Shown here one piece after another: positions 578 through 63,947 of a DNA stretch of 64,000 nucleotides. How positions within the stretch are numbered: position 1 is the stretch's first letter; the number at the start of each line of letters is the position of its first letter. The DNA comes from Bispira polyomma (lineage: Eukaryota). Both the position numbers and the translations under genes were made by a program. The DNA is taken from assembly GCA_965649765.1 (NCBI GenBank), contig OZ287749.1:65100001-65164000 (forward strand). The letters are read 5' to 3'. A model generated the notes under the pieces. The model was not told the DNA's origin, did no database searches, and saw only the letters and a list, made by a program, of their open reading frames with translations.

Positions 578-3500
578 CTAAAAAGAGAGAAAATAAACAA
601 ATATATAGAAAGTTGAGAGTGCTATGTATATGCAATACAAAATGACAAACATATATATTACGACTTGTCACATACTCAGTATAGGGTGGGGGCCGCGGTG
701 GCCTAGTGGTTAGCAAGCATTGCGCTTCACAATCACTGGTCTCTCACCTCTGGGCGGCGTGAGTTCGAATCCCGCCGATGCCTATGTGGGAAAGGTGGTA
801 GTTCCTTACTGTGGGCCGCTGGTTTCTCTGCAGAACCTTGACTGACTGTATGCAGTGTTTCCTCCAGCGTTTCCAACTACCCGTCCCAATATAAGGTACT
901 AGAGTGAACGTTAAATATCCAAATTCAAATTCAACTCAGTATAGGTTAGGATGCACTTATTGAGGTGCACCTGTACTCTATTTGTCAAAGACAGAACACT
1001 AGCAAGGACACTAGTCTAATTAAACCTACTTTAAAATTACACAAACAAGTTATACTAAATGTATTTTCTTTGAAAATATAGAGGACATTTTTTAATGGCA
1101 AAGTACCTGCAGCGCATTTATCTACCTTTATCTGTTATTCAAAGCACTAATTAACCTAGTCTTCACTGCCATCAGCCATCAACTACCATTCCCACTGACT
1201 GAAGACATATGTTTGAGGATGACCATTTATCAAGATCCACAAAGCATCTTTAACCTGTCACTGGGGATAGGACTCAATGACATATATGACCGTTTTTTTA
1301 GTGGTCATTCGAGAGCCACTTTGTATCTGTATGTACCTGGTCACCTTCGGCTGGTATCGAACCCAGGTCATGTGGTGCTAAGTGAGGATGTTTAACCACT
1401 AGGCAACAGTGGCGGTGTCATATAAGTACAAATGTGTTTACATTCTACTACACCATTGTTTTATCTTGCGTTACAGTAACACCGCTTTACCACAGTTATT
1501 ATATTTGCTTGTGTGACTTTGTAAAAATATTCAGTTTCACTTGCTTAAATGCAGTACATTTTATAATACCTTGCATCCCTGCCATAGTCAAGTTTGAAAA
1601 AAAAAATTACACCATTTTGGGGAATAATTAAGGCGTGAATAGTATAAATACAAGGTACCAAAAAATAAGATATTTTTTTACAGACAAACATGTAATACTT
1701 AACAGCACAATACATTAGGACACTGACAGGTATAAAAAAATAAGGTTGATATGAGGCATTGCCAAAATTTTAAAGATTTTAGCCTTAGCTATCACACCCA
1801 GTAATTAGAATGGACTTGTTTTCTTCTTACAGGGATGTGCAGGACCTGAGATAGCCTAGAGCTGTGGTAGCAATGGTTTTAATTTCCATCATTAACAATT
1901 ATCACACTATGAAGACATGGAGTTTTTATATTGTCCCTTGGAAAAATTAACACAGTTTTACCAGGCAGGGTTGAACTGTTTTTCAATGTAATTTTCAATG
2001 TAAATTTTCTATCAAGCTGATAACTTGTGTAGTAGGTTTGTATTATTGAATAATATGTCCTAATTTGTTTTACACCCAGTTATATGTAAGCTATTTACTG
2101 TGACTTTAGGAAACCAGTTATATGTATCTTATAATGTGTCTTCTTGTATGGTATACAATCCTACCTGTACTAGTGACAACTTTCAAAGAGAGACCACTAC
2201 TAATTAAAGACCACTTTGAAACCTCCCTTGAATTTTGCTATGCAAGTAGGCTCTGTAGAAGACCAAAGACTGCCTAAATTATTCCCTACAGTTGATCTGT
2301 ATAGTGGAGACTGCTTAAAACAGGGGAGTAGCCAGGATTTTTTATCTGGTACTCACAAATCAAACCAATATATTATGTTCCTTTTTATCCTACCAAAAAT
2401 TCAATTCCTGAGGGGGGAGGGGGGGGGTGCATCAAGGTAATATTTTGGTTTAATGGGGGGTGGGGGGTACCAAAATTTTTTTTTTATTTTTTATTTTTAA
2501 ATTTTTTTTTCTTGTTATTAAATTGGTACGCCTGGGCGTACTGGCGTTAATGGTAGCTACACCCCTGTTAAAAATATTACAGACGTTCTGTTAAAATCAA
2601 TGTAAGGACACCGCAAAATCAGCTTTGCAGAAAGACCAACCACCAGATGAGACGGTTTTTCAAGCATTCCCTAGAAAGGGCTTTAAATACAAGTTTCCCT
2701 GTGTGTGTCAAAATACTAAACTATTCTTACTTATCTTAATCTTATTTACTGTATGCAGCACAATTATTGATCACTTGTTACCATATTCTCCAAAAATCTA
2801 AAATTCAGCTCATACTCAAGGCCAAATTTAAGGTCTCGATATCTCCGGCTTGAGTAAGGTGAACTAATAGATGATTGTATATTGGAAAGCAGTGCTATAG
2901 ATGATTCTAAAATAAATTGTAACTAGCGTAGGTTAATCCCCCATGGAGAGACTTCCACATAGCCTTTACGTAAGTTGAGTCTGAATTTGAACTTACTTTG
3001 GAGGATGCAGATCCTGTTTCTTTGATACTGACATAGATTATAGATTCATATATTTAATAGGAAAATGTATCTTCCACAACTTCGATTACATAAAGAAAGA
3101 TAAGTTATTTTTTATTATACAAATCAAACAAATATATTGGCAAGTCTTATGATCCGTATACATATATACATTCATCGTTCATTTTTCAAAAGGGAATACA
3201 AATCTGCAAGGGGTTTAATATCAGTTACTGGTGGCATGCATTCTTTGGAAATCTTTAGAAGATTATCATCAAGACAAGTACAGGCAGCAACAACAATAAA
3301 CAAAATCCCACATCCCCAGAGTTCCCACCAACAGTAAACAGTAGTACTGTAAAATCCAAGACCGCCTCTCTATATAGACGCATCACTTTTACAGTAAAAA
3401 AAACCTTTCTTACCAGAAATTAGCCCCTTTTGTCAGCCTTAGTGTATTTTATTGGAACTAAATGACCACAAGAATTGCCCCTACTTGAGTTACTGCATGA

Positions 3501-22000: not shown

Positions 22001-23237
22001 TGTGACAATGATAATTTGATGAGACATATGATATTAGCGGCATAGAGTCTTGGCGATAATGAGGTTAGACAATATGGTCATACATAATTGACCAGTTGAA
22101 TAGGTAAACTAAAATCATACTTGTAAATTTCAGCAGCAATTCTCTACACTTTATCTGTTACCTGAGCTGGACAGGTGTGAAAACACATGTAAATAATCTT
22201 TGTATATTTTAATTTTAGAATCACCTGAATTTAAATGTATGTCATTGGTATTATCTTTCTGTCCACTTCAATTTAATCTGTCAAAAATATGAGACGTATA
22301 AATATGATCTAACCAATTTAGACAAAATATTCAAAGTCCAAACATTGTCAATGACTTCAGTGTTTTAAAACCTGTACATAATAAGTATTAATAGTTGTTC
22401 CTCAAAGTTTTTTAAGATATTGATTATTGCTTTTTTTCAACTTTTTAATAACTATCGACACAGGTTGATCATTTATATTATATAATCTTCATAAGTTAAG
22501 ATGACACTGTGTGTATTTTAGTATTTTCGCCTGTTTTTAAAGTCCATATTTTGGTTGTCAAACTGACTATATAGACATTTTATTTATGTGACAATATATC
22601 AGATTTGGTTTTCAAGAAACCCCCAACCCTCACGACTTATTTGTTACAATATTATATAAGAAGTAACATTTTACAGCATTGGTGGCTTTTAACCTTCAAA
22701 TGATCAGCAAACATCCAACCATCTATATGCAACTGTTTTACGTCAAAATGTTAAAAACTTGAAACTCTTATTACAACTGCCATTTATTATACTTAAGCGG
22801 CCGTATTTTGGAAAAATACCCTCAAGCTCAAACTTAGAGTCAACTTCGATTTTTTGCTCAGTTGCTATGGTGACACACTCAGAGATAAGATTAAATCTCA
22901 ACTTAGCCTGTATTCTCCAATATTTTGAGCTGAGATTTTTGTTAAACTCAAACTCAAAGTTGAGCAAGGCTGTACCTGACTCAACTGTATTAAGAATTTT
23001 ACTCGAATGAAATTAAATAAAAGTGATTGTGTGACGACATGTCCAACAGAACAGTAAGTTTAATTGGCCTGTTTGTTGTGGTGGAGTTGTGCCAACATTT
23101 CTAGACTTGCGTCTGAGCTGAGAAAAAAATTTTCAGCTGAGCTTGAGTAAAAATGCGTTCCAGAATATCAAATTGAGAAAAAAACTTAACTGAGCCTAAA
23201 TCTCAGATTTCAGCTTGACTTTGAGAGAACAGCCGAA

Positions 23238-23645
23238 GGTTTGGATATGTGTGTATGTGTCTTGCTACATGTATGTGTGTGTTTAGTTATTTGTATGTAT
23301 GTGTCTGGCTACATGCATGTGTGTGTTTGGATATTGTATGTATGTGTTGGGCTACGTGTATGTGTGTGTTTGGGTAAATGTATGTGTATGGCTACATGTA
23401 TGTGTGTGTGGCTACCTGTATGTGTGTGTTTGGCTACTTGTATGTATATGTTTGGCTACATGTATGTATGTGTCTGGTTACATGTATTGTGTATTTGGCT
23501 ACTTGTATATGTGTGTTTGGCTACCTGTATGTATGTGTTTGGCTACATGTTTGTGGGTGTTTGGCTACATGTATGTGTGTGTTTGGCTACCTGAATGTGT
23601 GTGTTTGGCTACATGCATGTGCATGTGTATGAGTGAGTGTGTGGC
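23238..23645 (+). repeat. Minisatellite, 20-bp unit TGTGTGTTTGGCTACATGTA, about 20 degenerate copies
   Basis: Direct periodicity. Confidence 0.95.
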
Positions 23646-24289
23646 TGATGATGGGTGGCATTTAATGCCCTCAGTAAGTGGACACTAGGGACAATACTAG
23701 AATGTCTAATTAGATCCCATTATAGCCCAACAACCACCGCCTTCTCGAGGGTCCAAGAAAATGGACTCTCCTATTTCTTCCTGTGTACAATAATGTAGGA
23801 TAAATAATTAACAGTGACAGGCGGATAAAGTGAAATCAAAAAGGAAATCCATTGATGCAGTTTGACCATTGGTCTTGACAATGTTTTCTTTTATTGACTG
23901 TATCATCTGTAATTTTAACCCTCAATTTTATTTTATTTTTTGTTAAACTAGCGAGCTTTAAGAAGTGACAATTGGGAGATTCGTTGAACATGTGAAATGT
24001 GTTATTAATTGTTAAACCCAGATTCACCAACAGTGCACACATATGCACTGCAATTGCAAATTATGGTTAAGTAGTAATAGAATTTATTTTTAGAGATTCT
24101 TTAGTCAAAGGCAAGACTATATGGTGAAAGATATATTGTGCTGAAAGATGTATATGAATAGACCAAACCCACAGTGAAAGATTTTTTGGGATACTCATGT
24201 TTGTAAACTGATTAAAATTAACATAAATAGATTAAAGCTCTAATACATTCTACAAAGATCATAATGCCCTGTTTCTACACATCATATTA

Positions 24290-49300: not shown

Positions 49301-52300
49301 CGTATTGTTAAAAACTGCAATTTCAGTTTAAAAAAAAATAAAAAACAGTAGTTTTTAATTATTTCAAATAAAAGAACAGGACCACGGGGGAAAAAAAAGA
49401 CTTCTATGTTTTATTGATATGATTCTATTCTATTCTTGATTCACTAATGTCAGGGGTAGTATTCAGAAAGACGTATCAGGATCAGATAAAGATCAGATCA
49501 AATTTGAGAAAAAAAAAGGCTCAAGCAAACCCTAGGATCAAATTGGTATTCACAAAACAACGAATCACTGAATCAAAAAATATCAAATATTTAATCTGTT
49601 TTTTTTTTTTATATTCTGTTTCTTCCATCAAACATCTGTTGGTCATATTTGATCCGCCCTGATCCAAATTTAATCCACTATGTTGACGGGATCAAAGTTT
49701 ATCCGTAATTTATTCGTTAAAATCAGATTAAATCATTTTTATGAATACTGCCCCAGATTTGCAAAAAAAGAACAGCTACTATTAATATCCCTACAAAGGA
49801 GGTTTTGTTTCTGACCCTGTCTATTTATTTGTTTGTTTGTCAACAGGATTACTCAAAAACTACTGAACTGATTTTGACTAAACTTGTTCAAGGGCCAGCA
49901 GCTGAGGACACCACAAAACTCTAACGCAGATCCAGAGTGAATATTGAGTACTCACTGTTTACTGTGTATTTACATTATACCTAAAAACTACCCGATAATC
50001 TATCTTTTGGTCCAACAAGTTCATTAATATGGTATCATATGGCTGACTTTGAGAGGTTATGGTCTAAAGCTAAAACACAGCCCTTTTCTACTTTGCTACC
50101 CCATTACTGAGGTTTATACTCAAGTGAGTACCGGTGTAAAAGTAAATCTTCCCCCCCCACCGTAAAATTTCCTCCACCCCGGGGGAAGATTTTCTAGAAA
50201 ATATTCCCCCCTACCATGGAAATCTTCCCCCTCCCTTACCTTAATGGACAAGCATATATTGTTTCAAAATTCTTTTATTTTAACTTTAAAAACAATTTGC
50301 ACATACATCATGTTACAAATATGAAAAATTTTATACAATTACTAATTTATTTACAATTTCAGTAGTCTGATCTAGTGAACTCATTGGCATGTACCACACT
50401 GAAGATTCTGCTATAAACATGAAGTATGAATTTTGTCACCACAGGTTTTGCAGTTCTTCGTTGATCTTGTGTTTGGCTGTTTACATGCACAGAAATTTTT
50501 TATTGTAAATGTCTTTTTTCAAGAGTGCAAACTTTATCTAAAGTAATCGGAAAGTGTGACATGTGTCCTTTTTGGAGTGCTGGGTGACCCTTATATTTAT
50601 ACCCAAAATTAAGCTCTACTTTATCTTCCCAACAACGAATCACAAACTCGAACCTATTTTAATTACCTAGCTCCCAAACCAATCACCTGTTATCTTAGTT
50701 TATATGCTAAATGACACCTTGCCTGGATTTCCTCCCTTTTATGCCAGATATGTTCTCTTTTATTCAGTGTCTGGTCCTTTATCTCCATCCTAGTTACTTC
50801 CTGTCACATAACCCTAATTACATAACAGTACACACAGACATCTAGGTTCAAACAATACTCCCTGGTGACAATGAACCTTTTGAGTCCCAGATATATGTTT
50901 AAGCTAGAAAATATCCCTGTATTAATACTGCTGCCCTTTTTATCAATACAATAAATATTGTTCTTAAAATAGTAGATATGACGACCCTGTTTAGCCCAGT
51001 TGACCAAATAAAGATACAAGTCTTAATGAAGTATCAGTTCGCGTTGTGTTCAAGTAGGCAGGTCGCCAGATAACAGATTCGTATAGGCAAGGTCACCGAG
51101 TAAGCTGGGGCTATTGAAGCTTGAATCAATAAGCTCACAAGATGACTTTTACATAATTAAGAACAACAAAATTATCTTCAATATGTATATTATAAATCAA
51201 AAGTGTACATACAATTTATACAGTACAATAACTCGAAAACAACAATATAAATGCACCAGTTCTGTGCACTGATATAAATTTAAGACTGCTTTGTGGCAGT
51301 GATAAAATACTCAGAACAACACTATATATTCTACAATGTCAGCCTAATTAATTACAGTCTAAAAACAAGTTCAACAAGCTAGGCCTGACAAAACATACTG
51401 CCTGACAAAACATACTGCCTGACAAAACATACTGCCTGACAAATATTCAAGTTATACTATAATAAACACATGGACCGGCGATGCAAGGCAGCAAATTACA
51501 TGTTTCAGTCGAAGTTATTATTAATTACTATATCTCACAACTGAATAAAAATAATAAAAAATGAATAAAAATACATTGAATTGGGGAACATTGTGACATG
51601 GTGGTCATTGTGGTGTTATTTCCTAGAAAACAAAACAAAATCACAAATGGAATTGGAGGGGGGAAAATTTTCAGGTGGGGGGTATTATTTTCTAGAAAAA
51701 AGTGGCTATATCAACTTTAGTAAGCGATGCTACCCCTAGTTTCCACAACCTCTTCTTTTAGACATATCACAAGCAACCCCTTCATACCTTGAGTTCCTGT
51801 AGAATCAGGTTATGTTTCAGGCCAGCTGCAATCAACCTGCCACCTTTCCAGTCGATTCGGTTGTTACTTATATCTAGGCTTTCAAGAACCTGAATACAAT
51901 CAGGTTTAGATCAAATATATTCTGAATTCTCCAGATAATTTCATGATTTGATATATTTTTGCACTTCTTCATAAACAATATTTTATTACAACAAAACAAT
52001 CAGGCAAAATCAAAAAGATTATAATAAAGGCTTCTCGCAGGAAGAAATATATATACAAAAGAAAAAAAAGAGAAGAATAACATACAATGATGTATGAAAA
52101 TATGAGTAGGTGTGTGGTCATGATCATACCTTATTAGCTTTTAACATCTCTCTCACCGCTAGAGCTCCTTCATATCCAAACCCATTAAAGGCAAGGTTGA
52201 CTACCTTCAAACAGTGATTACCCTGGTAGAGTAAAATGGCAAAATAAATTCAGTTGAAAGGTATATCAGTATCTGGGAACACAATACTATACAACTGATA

Positions 52301-58650: not shown

Positions 58651-59333
58651 TATAAATACATTCCCTCATAGAAAAGCCGAGGATCTGGGTTCAATCCAAG
58701 CATGTTGCGACCAGGTACAGATAGAAACATAGTGGCTTAGATGACCACCATCCTTGGGTCCCATCCCGAGTAACAAGCTAAAGAACCCTTGGGGACGGTT
58801 GATCAGTTCCTCGGTGTGTGGGCAAATGATAGATATTTAACCAACAACTCATAGTAAGAAAAGATTGCGGTTAAATACTTTATTATATATATATGATTTC
58901 TACTACTAACATATTTTTTATATACAGTTTCTTTGTAGAATACGTAATACTGTTGTGGGCATAAGGTCCCCTTAACTCAAGTGAGTTTAAGGCCTTACTT
59001 AGCTTACATTTAGGTGACCTTAGGTACAATGAGTTCAAGAGTATAAGTTTGCCAAAGTTGACTTTGAGTCCAAACTTAGAGGATTTGAGTTTAAGGTTAA
59101 GAGTTTAAGTTTGGTAGAAATTTTTATTTAAGTGCAAACTTAAGAGATTAAACTTTAAATTTATGCTAGTCTAAAGTTTGACTTAGGGTTATAAGTCGAA
59201 CTTTAGATACTTGAGTACAATATGTACTAATATAATGAAGGGGGGGACCTTATGCCCAAAAAAGGTATAATATTTAGTGTTATTTTGACAGATCTTAAGC
59301 CTAAATATTTAAGTTTGACCACCAAGCCCCAAA

Positions 59334-60317
59334 CTAGTAGGTGTTTTGTAGGACATCTTTAAAGGAATCTGCAACTTGAGTACCAGCATCAGCAGAGTCT
59401 GAGATGTAACGCCACACGCAATCCGACGTCCAGGTGCCATGTTTTTGAATATCCTGAATCTTGACATTATTGTTAAACGCAAAGGTGGCACCTGAACGTC
59501 GGAAGGCGTGAAAGGTCAAGCCAGAGCATTGAGTACCAAGTAAGGATAGTACATTTTTGAGGTGCCTTCGCACACGTGTGTCTGTCAGTGGAACCCACGA
59601 GCCTTGGAGTTTAAACTGAAATAATGGGAGATTTTTTCCTTTAGGTGAGATGGCTAACACAGCTTTCAAGGCCTGAACAGGACAAAGAATTGAATTTTGT
59701 ATACTTGGGATGGTTAGCAACCGAACTGCATCATTTCTCTGCAGCGTCTTAGACCATTTAACCATGATGACTGCATACCCTGGCTTAAACAAAACATCAG
59801 CTCTAGCTAATTGCTTAAGAGGAGAGTATGACCCCATTGAATGAGGACACAGATTGGATAAACGCAAAAATGTAAAAAAACTTGTCAAATAAACAGCCTT
59901 GAAAATTTGGCCCATGTAAGTACTATCACATTTACTAATGAGAGCCCTAAGCAAGTGCACATCAAAAATTGACTTCAATTTCGCTTGTAAAGGTCTATGC
60001 ATAGCCAAGGCTTTAGTGAAATAAGAAATACTCTGATCAGAAAATACTTGAACATCTATATGAAACATAACACATTTTGCCTTCACAGCCGAGATGTGAT
60101 TTACTACCTGAGAGGCCGAAACACCATTGAAATTTAGAAACTCTAAATATGCTAAAATTTGCAACAGTCACCTTGTGGGGAGGCCACGACATAAAGGCTC
60201 AAAAAGCTAGAGACTGACGGAACATTATGTCATATGCTTTATTAGTGGCAGGAGTAAGAGCTGAGTTCAGCCTATCACAAGCCAGTCTCATCAAAGCCAG
60301 ACCCACAGGGTGAGTGC
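59334..60317 (-). pseudogene. Tyrosine recombinase of the YR retrotransposon
   Basis: Catalytic R (FLRLSN), K (WSKT), HxxR (FHAFRRSGAT) and H/W...Y (HGTWTSDCVWRY). The 276-aa ORF 60164-59334 extends upstream to 60317 across one frameshift (about 60165) and one TGA (60201-60199). Confidence 0.93.
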
Positions 60318-60341
60318 CTGGAAAAGAAAAACTAAAACCTG

Positions 60342-62827
60342 CTATATAAGAGTGTTCACATGAAATAAATTTTCAGGGACAGGAAGCCATTGAATTGGTC
60401 CAGCCAGTTGATTTAATAATAGGTGGTTACTTTCTGTCTCGGCCCATCTGGAAAGTAAGTCAGCCACTTTATTTTCTCTACCTAGAATATGGACTACAAC
60501 AATTTCAATGTCAAACTTACTGGCTAACATGTATATGTTTCTGGTATAAGTGGCCAATATGGGGTCTCCAGTATGGCCTGTCTGTAAGACACTGACTACT
60601 GCCTGATTGTCACATCTTACTAAAATTTTCTGACCCTTCCATTTTTGGACCCATAACTTCATTGCTACCAAAATGTTCAACATTTCAAGAGAAGCTATAT
60701 TATACTCTGTCATACTTGTAGGAACTTTAATTTGGTATACTTGATTTCCATAAATCTCCCCCATGCCTGTGAGGCAGGCATCCAATTGTATCTCGCCTGA
60801 TATGGGTTTATGTAAGAAAAAGGAAACACCATTGAACTGCTCTGCAAAAGTTCTAAACCAATTTAAGTCACGTCTGAATGCATCACTTATTACAAATTTG
60901 TTTTTACTGTGATTGTCTCATAGCAGTTCCAACATTCTATTCAAGAAAACCCGAGCATATTTAATACATTTAGAGATATATAGCAAAAGGCCCAGTAAAG
61001 ACTGTAGTTCTCTCTTGGTACAATAGTTTTTTGAAGCCCAATCCCTGCACTTGCTCTGAATTTCTGCCATTTGTTCAGATGGGATAGAAGTTGTGCATTT
61101 GACTGTGTCGATTATTATGCCTAAGCAGACTACCTCAGTGCTGGGTGGAACCAATTTTTTCTGGCTAACTGTAAGACCCAGTTCAGCAAGCAATTCTTGC
61201 AGTCTTATGAACGTTTTCTGAATTTTACTGGGAAGTGATACACATAAAAAATCGTCGATATAATTGTGGATGTTATGATTTTTCTGAGTGCATTATGAAA
61301 AGCACTGCATCCGAAATTCGTTGAAAAATAGTACTGCCATTCAAATAACCAAACGGCAGCGATTTATCGACATAATAAGATTTCCACTTCAACCCTAAGA
61401 GGTCAATGTCGCCAGGGTCGATGGGGACGTGGCGAAACGCCCTACTCACGTCTATTTTAAATATCTGACAACCCTTACCCAATTTAGACTCTTCAGTAAT
61501 AAGATGATCAAAGGAAGGGTAAGACAGTAAAAAATTGACACCCAGATACGAAGTCGGAGAAGCACCTGCATTTACTGAAGCCCCCTGAGGCCAACTCAAA
61601 TCCACAATCACACGTCTGTTAATCGAGTTGGGTTTATGTCTGGTCATTAAAGGGGAACAATGCAAATTCTGAATTGGTGGAGTGTCAAAAGGACCAAGCA
61701 TTGCCCCAAAGCCACATTCTTCCTTCATATAGGCGTCTACATGTTGAGGAAATTCCTCTGCCGACTTATGGTTAGTTTCATTCGACTCGGTATGAATTTT
61801 TCGACACACATCAACAGGGAATCCGTATTTTATAAGGAGAGGCAGTTGCCAATCCCAGTAGGTTTGTAAATACTTTCCCCACGTTTCAGCTTTTAATTGA
61901 GAATGGACAGGAATCTGGAGGCCAGTATAATTATGCCTGCCATCATGGATAGTTTGTGCCCTCCCCCACCATGGTCAGCAATCTCACTGCCCAAAGCCGA
62001 GAGAGGAATAAATCCATAAGCATGACTACTCTGGTCCTGCCATTTTTTGTGTGTTTGATTCGAGGCCGCCTTCTTCAGCAACTCCCTTTTATTTTTCTTG
62101 TGCTTTAAAGCACACGAATACCTATCAGAGGTTTCAACATTTTCATTAACAAGTTCTGCGCAAGTATTTGTCTCTTGGTGCTTTGCAAAGCCCCCATTGT
62201 TACCCGGCGTGTTACTAGAGCGAACGACCCTCACAATGACTGCATTGTCCTCCACAGGTATCTGTGCCAACGCGGAAAACCGGTTGTTAAGCTGAAGGCC
62301 ACAGTTAGCTTCATTGACACGGCTCTTTTCACCCCCCTCTGAATCGATCTTCTAACACCTTTTGTCTCCACGCCCTGTTGCTTTGTGCATGGGGGTCGCT
62401 TCACAATAGGCGTCACCTTCTTAGCCACTTGAATGGAGGTGCCAATTACAGGTGTTAACTTTTCAAACCTTTGAATAGATGTGGCAGCAGAGGTGTCAAC
62501 ATTATTCTTGAGTTCAGCTCTGCCAACCTTTTGTGGTTGGCATAACCTACCCTTTTGTGTCACCTTTCCAGAGCTAAACCTGTCAACCCCACCCTTATGC
62601 CTCAGACTTTCTGTATGTCCAGTACTATATACAAACATTGATTTTCTGGTACTAGCAGTACTTTTTAAAGCATCACTATAACTAACATTAGGCCTTTTGA
62701 CCTTCATATATTTACACATTTTCTGATACACATTTTTTTCAAACAAATGAAAATCTTTGAAGCCTGTGCCATAGACAGTTCTATTTACAACCTTAAAATT
62801 TTTTACCTTTTTATCCACTGCATCCAA
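60342..62827 (-). pseudogene. pol (reverse transcriptase plus RNase H) of the YR retrotransposon
   Basis: RRVIVDLSWP, KIDVSRAFRH, LPFG, YIDD (61262-61251), CLGI; RNase H DAC...IASLEMLN...CDNQAVV...NKVADLLSRW. Several frameshifts and stops. Confidence 0.92.
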
Positions 62828-62838
62828 GCAGTGGCCCC

Positions 62839-63947
62839 TCAGTTTTTTGCCTCTTTTTTGCTACACATACTGGTCTTATGACTACCCCCACAAGTTTCAC
62901 AACTATGCCTATACATTTGCCCCCCTGTGTTATGTGAGCTAGAGAACTTGCAAGTTCCTTCTTGGAAGAACCTGCAAGGTGTCGACTTTTTCTGACTAGT
63001 TTTACTACTGCCAGTGCTAACAGCACGGCCATTTGCCTCATGAATAGATCTTGACACACCTACATGACGTTGGGCGAATCCGGTCGACCTTCTCGACATC
63101 CAACCACCCAAGCTTGTCCATTTCCATACTGGTTAGGACTACCACGTGGTAGGCCTTCGTCGCCTCCCACGAAAAGTCTTGGGTGTCCTCCATGAGGCCA
63201 CTCATGTAATCTAGCATAGCATTCTTAATTTCAGTCGACTTCTCCTCATGAGCGATCCGGGTGAAGCCACAAACCCATTGAACAAGGGTTAAGTCATCAT
63301 AGCTAGGGCGAGTCTTCGAACTGCCGGTCAGCACATAATTCTGGGGCCATTCGACCGCCTTTTTTACAATAACCTTGTTCCCCCCAGTTCTTTGAGACTT
63401 AATTTTACCTGAGGGATTTTCATTAAGAGACCGGAGGTCCTTTAACCTCTGTTCGACTTGCAACTGAATCTGGGCGTTCTGACTCAAAAATTCGACACTC
63501 AGAATGACAGTATCTGGGCCAGTAGGTGGGCTTTTACCTTCGTCAGCAGAGACTAGCTCTTTAGAAACACTAGGAGTGATGCTAGAAGGAACGATACTGG
63601 CCTTACTACTGGGCAACTCCCTTTGGTGGCCGTGGTTCGATTCCCCAACAGGGAGCCAAAAAAAACAAAAAAACCTTACTACTGGTGAGGTTGGCTGCTA
63701 ACGCTGCCTCTGTCTGCTGGACTCGCCGATCCATCCTCTCGACTACCTGGCTAAGCGATTGCAACTGCTGTAGTATAGCGCTAGATACAGCCTCGTTCGG
63801 ATGAACCAGCGAGTCCTCATGGGAGCCAGCGTCAACCTCCACTCCCTCACCTGAGATATCAGGCATATTAACCGAACAGTTTCTTCCAACAGGTCTCTCA
63901 TGCTTTTGCAAACATTTCGGACAAAACACAATCTTTTTACCTGGCAT
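62839..63947 (-). pseudogene. gag-like ORF of the YR retrotransposon (interrupted)
   Basis: N-terminal CPKC-x3-H-x7-C, central WPQNYV and QWVCGF motifs, C-terminal CRFFQEGTC...H-x-C-x2-C-x3-H-x4-C zinc finger. Broken by a 73-nt insertion plus TSD at 63601-63685 and a frameshift near 63075. Confidence 0.85.
63613..63673 (+). mobile_element. Short tRNA-derived retroposed insertion with A tail and 12-bp TSD
   Basis: GGTTCGATTCC B-box/T-loop, ACAGGGAG-CCA end, A-rich tail; TSD CCTTACTACTGG at 63601-63612 and 63674-63685. Confidence 0.85.

Follow-up and report, generated by a model that had tools for sequence, protein, structure and literature searches.

Splice signals conserved in matching phase point to a probable spliced Gag–recombinase fusion in a family of Ngaro-like retrotransposons

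The family represented by a dead retrotransposon copy in the window (the whole 64,000-nt stretch of DNA that was analysed) probably makes its tyrosine recombinase (YR) from a spliced RNA, in which the gag core and pol are removed and the first 110–190 gag codons are joined in frame to the YR frame. We consider this likely because distant relatives retain matching splice signals in the same phase; the conservation of these signals supports the spliced Gag–YR fusion that had been proposed in the initial annotation of this DNA. From the same sequence comparisons we infer that the RNA is actually spliced, that the donor in the gag linker is paired with the YR acceptor and that pol is expressed by recoding.

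One transcription unit would give three products. The unspliced RNA would be translated into Gag, a fraction of the ribosomes would continue into Gag-Pol, either by −1 frameshifting (the window element and L010) or by TGA-C readthrough (most other relatives), and the spliced RNA would encode the N-terminal part of Gag fused to the recombinase (Gag-N::YR), a protein of about 480 residues in the window element. The Gag piece would provide a start codon, which many YR frames do not have, and the Gag helix, which is kept in every family, probably allows the recombinase to assemble together with Gag on the element RNA or cDNA. We lean slightly towards a broader reading, in which this scheme of unspliced Gag, Gag-Pol by frameshift or TGA readthrough and YR as a spliced Gag-N::YR characterizes a broad and old Ngaro-type lineage, where the Gag helix would take the place of the arm domain found at the N terminus of phage integrases and would load the enzyme into the particle.

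Table 1. Features of the element copy in the window
Feature	Positions	Strand	Remarks
3' non-coding region with 22-nt inverted pair (58950–58971 and 59243–59264)	58950–59264	.	
YR exon: core-binding and catalytic domain	59334–60317	−	Shows the Arg, His-x-x-Arg, His and Tyr motifs
Pyrimidine tract and phase-1 acceptor AG (60319–60318)	60318–60341	−	
Predicted 3091-nt intron: gag core and all of pol	60318–63408	−	Predicted from the splice signals
pol: reverse transcriptase and RNase H behind a long N-terminal spacer; methyltransferase absent	60342–62860	−	Broken in this copy
Slippery-type heptamer A AAT TTA where pol and the YR frame overlap by 28 nt in −1	60366–60372	−	No downstream structure, z +0.47
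7-bp hairpin, 7 nt past the slippery site at the gag end	62815–62834	−	z −1.87; 10 of 200 shuffles fold as well
gag, ATG 63947, stop TGA 62841–62839	62839–63947	−	Broken in this copy; matched by L016 Gag in tblastn (E 1e-24)
Slippery heptamer A AAA AAC at the gag end, pol in the −1 frame	62842–62848	−	
Phase-1 splice donor GT, TCAG/GTAAAA, in the linker that joins the conserved helix to the KSQR motif	63407–63408	−	
Predicted first coding exon: 155 codons and one base, insertion excluded	63409–63947	−	Predicted; length by arithmetic
Second phase-1 donor GT	63536–63537	−	Score 4.1 versus 4.3; position not common to relatives
73-nt insertion in gag	63601–63685	+	Contigs of sequencing runs X1 and X2 join across the insertion

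Conservation of the acceptor and donor sites

The acceptor AG was confirmed to lie 22 nt past the RNase H stop codon (TAG 60344–60342), and the annotated donor–acceptor distance is likewise correct; the equivalent intron would measure 2470–3108 nt in five related loci. Scored with approximate weight tables, as were all splice sites here, the window acceptor is by far the best of the 15 AGs that lie up to 240 nt ahead of the YR helix (13.2 versus 2.6). Among the AGs up to 240 nt away from the first YR helix, the top-scoring one is in phase 1 in 16 of 18 loci, and 15 of these 16 AGs have a positive score and an open frame, at a distance of 44–86 nt to the helix. The two exceptions, L015 and L018, contain the same AG as their sisters with a shift of 1–2 nt downstream. 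Five of 22 loci (L004, L009, L014, L019 and L022), in which the YR start is absent or shifted, were omitted from this count. The loci counted form eight groups at less than 45% YR identity, with YR mostly 25–45% identical between groups, and by our own arithmetic the phase would agree by chance with a probability of about 1.5e-4 at one third per group. A branch-like YTAAC motif is found 26–29 nt upstream in five of 12 loci.

The proteins called from closer relatives show the same junction. At the predicted site [STPALVI]-Gly, the translation of NYA/G, is present in 21 of 24 YR proteins, compared with 119 of 988 control windows, and Phe and Tyr make up 41% of the residues before the junction and 2% after it; the 24 proteins are those of the 120 matches listed that were called far enough upstream, a choice that favours proteins without a nearer start. 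In L002 the Pfam SAM-like domain starts 12 residues into the exon.

On the donor side, the GT at 63408–63407 is in phase 1 of the gag frame at ENPSG/KIKS, and the figure of about 155 Gag residues before it holds once the insertion is discounted. Across the 36 codons that lead up to the conserved Ser, a range picked after the sites had been seen, the best donor is in phase 1 in all seven families, and six of 262 other windows reach equally high scores; against synonymous shuffles the combined P is 0.002, with weak values of 0.03–0.33 for single families. When the whole gag alignment was scanned with a sliding frame of 45 columns at a donor score of 4 or more, this linker was the only place with a strong phase-1 donor in six of the seven families, the best elsewhere being one of seven in phase 1 and at most one of seven in phases 0 and 2. 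The distance to the anchor is variable (3 to 34 codons), and the L004 donor scores just 1.5. The 'GK motif' proposed at the donor stands as a splice signal and fails as a peptide, the codon across the donor being Gly in six of seven families and Arg in L010 (C/GTAAGT), followed by Lys, Asn or Glu. Donor and acceptor are thus conserved in matching phase (seven of seven families and 16 of 18 loci, respectively), as in retroelements with a spliced subgenomic mRNA, and the conservation of donor, pyrimidine tract and phase 1 that the initial annotation had put forward as a check was borne out.

The families compared have Gags that are 16–35% identical. The gag of the window copy encodes an N-terminal Cys/His knuckle, a helical region, the linker, the conserved core and C-terminal Cys/His motifs. 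The placing of the donor at the boundary behind a zinc-knuckle part needs amendment: the helix directly before the donor is universal across families, whereas the N-terminal zinc knuckle is absent from the L015 family and P0271. Gag searches returned few relatives (one in one search, seven in another), a Gag profile had no match among solved structures, and the Atlas gave unnamed clusters only for Gag and nothing above 0.8 for its N-terminal part. No Gag-N::YR protein was present among the 120 listed of 387 matches, all from one source whose calls look unspliced, or among 150 listed representatives. P0277 (505 aa) was considered as a Gag–YR fusion and rejected, as no YR motifs were seen in it by eye. 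Among 15 of 96 contigs listed none has a joint at 60317/63409, which is no measure of splicing as the kind of contig is unspecified, and among 40 of 507 differences listed none falls on the donor GT or the acceptor AG, which is weak evidence.

Other routes to the recombinase

The real acceptor may be joined to another upstream phase-1 donor, or to several, elsewhere in gag or behind a short first exon, so that a different part of Gag would be attached. Single families do contain further phase-1 donors with comparable or better scores (63537 in the window copy, a stronger one in the core of the L015 family and several in L002), but the linker donor is the only one common to the families in the gag alignment, and we regard this arrangement as unlikely. 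It is extremely improbable that T-rich spacers and Gly-Lys/Asn linkers gave rise to the signals by chance: many donor scores of single families are modest and within reach of synonymous shuffles, and the spacers are AT-rich in several loci, but the phase bias is seen at both ends over seven to eight distant groups, in C-rich and T-rich tracts alike, and GTAAGT is retained even where the residue becomes Arg.

A Pol–YR fusion made by −1 ribosomal frameshifting in a short overlap, a route suggested for Ngaro elements, would fit the window copy, where there is a 28-nt overlap in −1 between the YR frame and the RNase H end, with the heptamer A AAT TTA; −1 is also the commonest pol-to-YR offset (seven of 11 loci), and some close relatives have a YR frame that is open for 30–37 residues upstream of the helix. 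The window copy alone has this overlap together with an internal ATG and the second donor, and these features count against the splicing reading. However, the heptamer is followed by no stimulatory structure, the offset varies (0 in two loci and +1 in two), stops cut pol off from the YR frame in eight of 11 loci, with a gap of 19–764 nt, and the conserved tract, the phase of the AG and the gag donor would be left unexplained. Translation of YR from its own nearby ATG, behind an internal promoter or a spliced untranslated leader, would agree with the in-frame ATG at 60291 (the ninth full codon of the YR exon, as annotated) and with a Met between acceptor and helix in four of 12 loci and in a subgroup of the YR protein matches. 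Against it, six of the 12 non-redundant loci lack any Met upstream of the first YR helix, five of them with the first Met 17–92 residues into the conserved domain, and a leader would not need a fixed phase. Since six of 12 YR frames lack an early Met and eight of 11 are separated from pol by stops, a −1 frameshift from pol is not general here; we judge it very unlikely as the route to YR, and an independent start equally so. Splicing from the gag linker to the YR acceptor is the reading that we prefer.

The same donor was also considered for pol, and splicing of pol was rejected from the sequence of the gag–pol junctions, which carry recoding signals: TGA-C in five of eight distinct junctions, and A AAA AAC with a hairpin in two of eight.

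Relation to known retroelements and state of the copy

In retroviral and gypsy env and foamy-virus pol mRNAs, splicing skips gag-pol to give access to a downstream ORF, with at most a few gag codons retained, and retroviral pol is reached via frameshift or readthrough. In contrast, 110–190 gag codons would remain in the element described here, and the product would be a recombinase rather than an envelope protein. In plant Ty1/Copia elements (PMC5580714), conserved alternative splicing likewise sets protein ratios in a retrotransposon; there, however, the spliced subgenomic RNA yields the structural Gag, whereas here it would yield an integration enzyme fused to part of Gag.

The window element is a multi-copy YR retrotransposon with Ngaro-like gene content, in the order gag, RT/RNase H and YR on the minus strand. 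As in the order DIRS, a gag-like ORF and RT/RNase H are combined with a tyrosine recombinase, its catalytic motifs visible, in place of a DDE integrase; the Pfam matches to RVT_1, RVT_3 and Phage_integrase are weak in the broken window copy and above the cut-off in L002. Pol ends right behind RNase H, which leaves 24 nt to the YR exon, and no Pfam methyltransferase match was found in the window copy or L002. In the accessible portions of PMC9210276, PMC8547959, PMC3783388 and PMC3266345, Ngaro-like elements have this same order without a methyltransferase, and splicing does not appear there, whereas here the gag donor and YR acceptor point to Gag-N::YR. DIRS1-like and PAT-like elements share RT/RNase H and YR and, according to PMC3266345, PMC4157794 and PMC6681497, encode a methyltransferase after RNase H, which the window element lacks; the split direct repeats that accompany it define the PAT-like type, and the Gag of Pat1 has a zinc finger motif. 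Searches of viral, prokaryote and phage collections gave no relatives of the element.

How the recombinase of the order DIRS is translated has so far been answered by a guess in a review: a −1 frameshift from pol was proposed for Ngaro YR by Poulter and Butler (2015), as quoted in PMC13003380, whereas the required pol–YR overlap is mostly absent here. No spliced gag–YR RNA was found in the literature, in a search that did not reach Goodwin and Poulter (2004), Poulter and Butler (2015), Repbase entries or supplements. If the broader reading is true, the YR ORFs published for this lineage would represent incomplete proteins, and the YR frameshift model would not hold for it. With splicing as we read it, biochemical work would probably have to use the enzyme in a Gag-fused form of about 450–520 residues. 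Such a fusion would suggest how an integrase outside Pol reaches the cDNA, and the integration step would gain a splicing switch that the host could control. The exact junctions given here can be looked up in existing RNA-seq and ribosome-profiling data.

Ngaro-like elements are marked by split direct repeats in the arrangement A1-ORFs-B1A2B2, and DIRS1-like elements by inverted terminal repeats that come with an internal complementary region. No B1/B2 direct repeat was found at the 3' end of the window copy, only the 22-nt inverted pair, which could be such a complementary region; the 5' end of the element lies outside the window, which holds 54 nt upstream of the gag ATG. Direct repeats are present in four of ten self-compared relatives (L002, L008, L009 and L021), and an SGNH/GDSL ORF follows YR in L007 (Lipase_GDSL_2, E 5e-12; one of three such ORFs scanned), both in keeping with Ngaro-like elements. 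No ORF of 100 aa follows YR in the window that could be this optional SGNH hydrolase.

The window copy is itself unable to make the fusion, with a stop after RQSLAF (near 60201) and a frameshift near 60163 in the YR exon, stops and frame shifts in pol, and a gag broken by the insertion and by a second frame shift near 63040. These lesions look private, because sister contigs depart from the window sequence at several of them. The gag insertion had been called a tRNA insert; we rejected it as a tRNA gene (ARAGORN, 0 genes; Rfam, 0 matches), and we take the 3' end of the inserted piece to be tRNA-like. It consists of a 61-nt antisense piece with an A-rich tail (63613–63673) between two copies of a 12-bp duplication (63601–63612 and 63674–63685).

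Predicted splice signals and their conservation

The window contains a tyrosine recombinase (YR) retrotransposon with gag, pol (reverse transcriptase and RNase H) and YR in this order. This copy is dead, with lesions in all three genes: an insertion of 73 nt plus a frameshift in gag, stop codons and frameshifts in pol, and one of each in the YR exon. Its family is multi-copy: 1825, 1856 and 2649 contigs from three runs of one study match the element, covering 30 of 30 bins, and these contigs disagree with the window sequence at several lesions. The initial annotation proposed that a phase-1 donor in gag is spliced to an acceptor ahead of YR, removing pol; the sequence bears out the donor GT and the acceptor AG at their stated positions, the placement of the AG 22 nt past the end of pol, phase 1 both in gag and at the opening of the YR frame, and the 3091 nt between the two sites. 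The phase also proved to be conserved in relatives, as described below.

The donor was compared in seven families with gag DNA, which are 16–35% identical. In all seven, a phase-1 GT lies between a conserved helix and a K-S-G/Q motif and outscores phases 0 and 2, an equal score being reached in 6 of 262 other windows; the splice-site weight tables used were approximate. A synonymous-shuffle null gave single P values of 0.03–0.33 and a combined P of 0.002 for a scan window picked post hoc, and windows of 45 columns were therefore slid along the full gag alignment. The linker held a strong phase-1 donor (score ≥4) in six of the seven families, compared with at most one at other positions or phases; at a score of ≥1 the counts were seven in the linker and three elsewhere. 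The implied introns are 2470–3108 nt long, and the 111–187 gag codons retained end with the conserved helix in every case, whilst the N-terminal knuckle is absent from two of eight Gags.

For the acceptor, a YR profile search yielded 22 loci of 30–43% identity. Scoring covered 18 loci, the window among them, which cluster into eight groups at <45% identity; five others, whose YR start is absent or shifted, were excluded. All AGs were scored over the 240 nt leading up to the first conserved helix of YR. AGs in all three phases occur at each locus, and the top-scoring AG is in phase 1 in 16. One of these, in L007, is a poor site because the contig begins within the pyrimidine tract; the two misses share the AG of their sisters, with a shift of 1–2 nt downstream of it. 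YTAAC lies 26–29 nt upstream of the acceptor in five of 12 non-redundant loci, and the L002 exon would start 12 residues ahead of the Pfam SAM-like core-binding domain. Among the matches listed, 120 closer YR proteins are 47–60% identical; 49 fit the anchor pattern and 24 reach far enough upstream. Since NYA/G translates in frame to [STPALVI]-Gly, this pair is expected at the junction, and it was found in 21 of these 24 proteins compared with 119 of 988 control windows, preceded by an unconserved Phe/Tyr-rich stretch. On these comparisons, we regard the arrangement of predicted splice signals as a real, conserved feature. The long AT-rich spacers of L002 and L005 are as would be expected if this stretch were intronic.

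Features of the window element and of related loci (L numbers, found by the YR search); a slash marks the predicted splice point
Feature	Locus	Position	Strand	Detail
YR retrotransposon	window	63947-59334	minus	gag, pol, YR
Phase-1 donor	window	63408-63407	minus	TCAG/GTAAAA
Phase-1 donor	L002			GAAG/GTAAAA
Phase-1 donor	L004			AATG/GTAACG
Phase-1 donor	L015 family			TCTG/GTGAGT
Phase-1 donor	L010			ACAC/GTAAGT
Phase-1 donor	L016			TCAG/GTAATA
Phase-1 donor	L021			TCTG/GTAAGT
YR acceptor	window	60319-60318	minus	AG
Gag-pol slippery heptamer and hairpin	window	62815-62848	minus	A AAA AAC
Gag-pol slippery heptamer and hairpin	L010	about 1057-1115		A AAA AAC
Spacer before reverse transcriptase	window	61900-62860	minus	~300 codons
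Pol stop to YR acceptor	L002	3719-3974		255 nt
Pol stop to YR acceptor	L005	474-about 1260		~790 nt
Inverted pair	window	58950-58971 / 59243-59264		22 nt
Fourth ORF	L007	1042-1692		
Fourth ORF	L019	862-1527		
Fourth ORF	L021	4581-5222		
YR then gag	L001	1102-1737		
YR then gag	L004	632-1474		
tRNA-like fragment	window	within 63601-63685		61 nt
Tandem repeat	window	23230-23662		22-nt period, TG-rich
Tandem repeat	window	51383-51443		17 nt

Routes to pol and YR

TGA-C is a readthrough signal and a slippery heptamer a frameshift signal. An in-frame TGA followed by C is present at five of eight distinct gag-pol junctions and TGA-A at one, and at the other two (window and L010) pol lies in the -1 frame and A AAA AAC is followed by a hairpin; of 200 shuffles, 10 and 2, respectively, folded equally well. 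These signals suggest that pol is probably recoded and YR alone spliced; with slippery sites in two elements and TGA-C in other relatives, the lineage apparently alternates between frameshifting and readthrough. Between the window junction and the reverse transcriptase lies a spacer of low conservation, basic in part, that matched no Pfam family; L002 and L004 likewise have a long spacer here.

Routes to YR other than splicing appear to fail, because Met codons are missing, stops intervene and the frame offset varies. Of 12 non-redundant YR frames, six lack any Met ahead of the first helix, two have one solely within the tract and four, including the window, have one downstream of the AG; pol and YR are separated by stops in eight of 11 loci, with an offset of -1, 0 or +1. 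For the YR of Ngaro elements, Poulter and Butler (2015; cited in PMC13003380) suggested -1 frameshifting where two frames overlap briefly. The window alone permits this, with a 28-nt pol-YR overlap containing A AAT TTA, and no structure follows it; such frameshifting is a small rival for the window family and could also operate alongside splicing. Splicing onto the YR acceptor from some coding exon is, in our judgement, very probable. It is likely, if less firmly so, that a single transcript would yield Gag, Gag-Pol by recoding and, by splicing, Gag-N::YR, an in-frame fusion of the N-terminal part of Gag to YR, in which the retained Gag piece may tether the recombinase to Gag assemblies.

Goodwin and Poulter in 2004 reportedly mentioned spliceosomal introns in some YR elements. 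Within the portions of the literature searched, no report of a spliced gag-YR RNA was found, and an earlier mention is possible. Spliced retrotransposon RNA is described for Copia in PMC5580714; there it gives gag, whereas here it is predicted to give Gag-N::YR.

Classification and accompanying features

The gene order and missing methyltransferase of the window element fit those described for Ngaro-like elements in PMC3266345, PMC4157794 and PMC9210276; judged on these two characters, it is Ngaro-like in content and not a proven member. At its 3' end, an inverted pair flanking a 271-nt AT-rich stretch may represent an internal complementary region, a feature not usual in elements that lack a methyltransferase. 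A fourth ORF lies downstream of YR in L007, L019 and L021, with a GDSL/SGNH hydrolase Pfam match in L007 only. In L001 and L004 the gag of another copy follows 600–850 nt after YR, as a result of either tandem insertion or an assembly joined at a repeat that the copies share.

The antisense tRNA-like 3' fragment with an A-rich tail lies within a 12-bp duplication, is absent from sister contigs and probably arose by retroposition of a small RNA or of a SINE piece. Two tandem repeats and, in other parts of the window, several dispersed repeat families were also observed.
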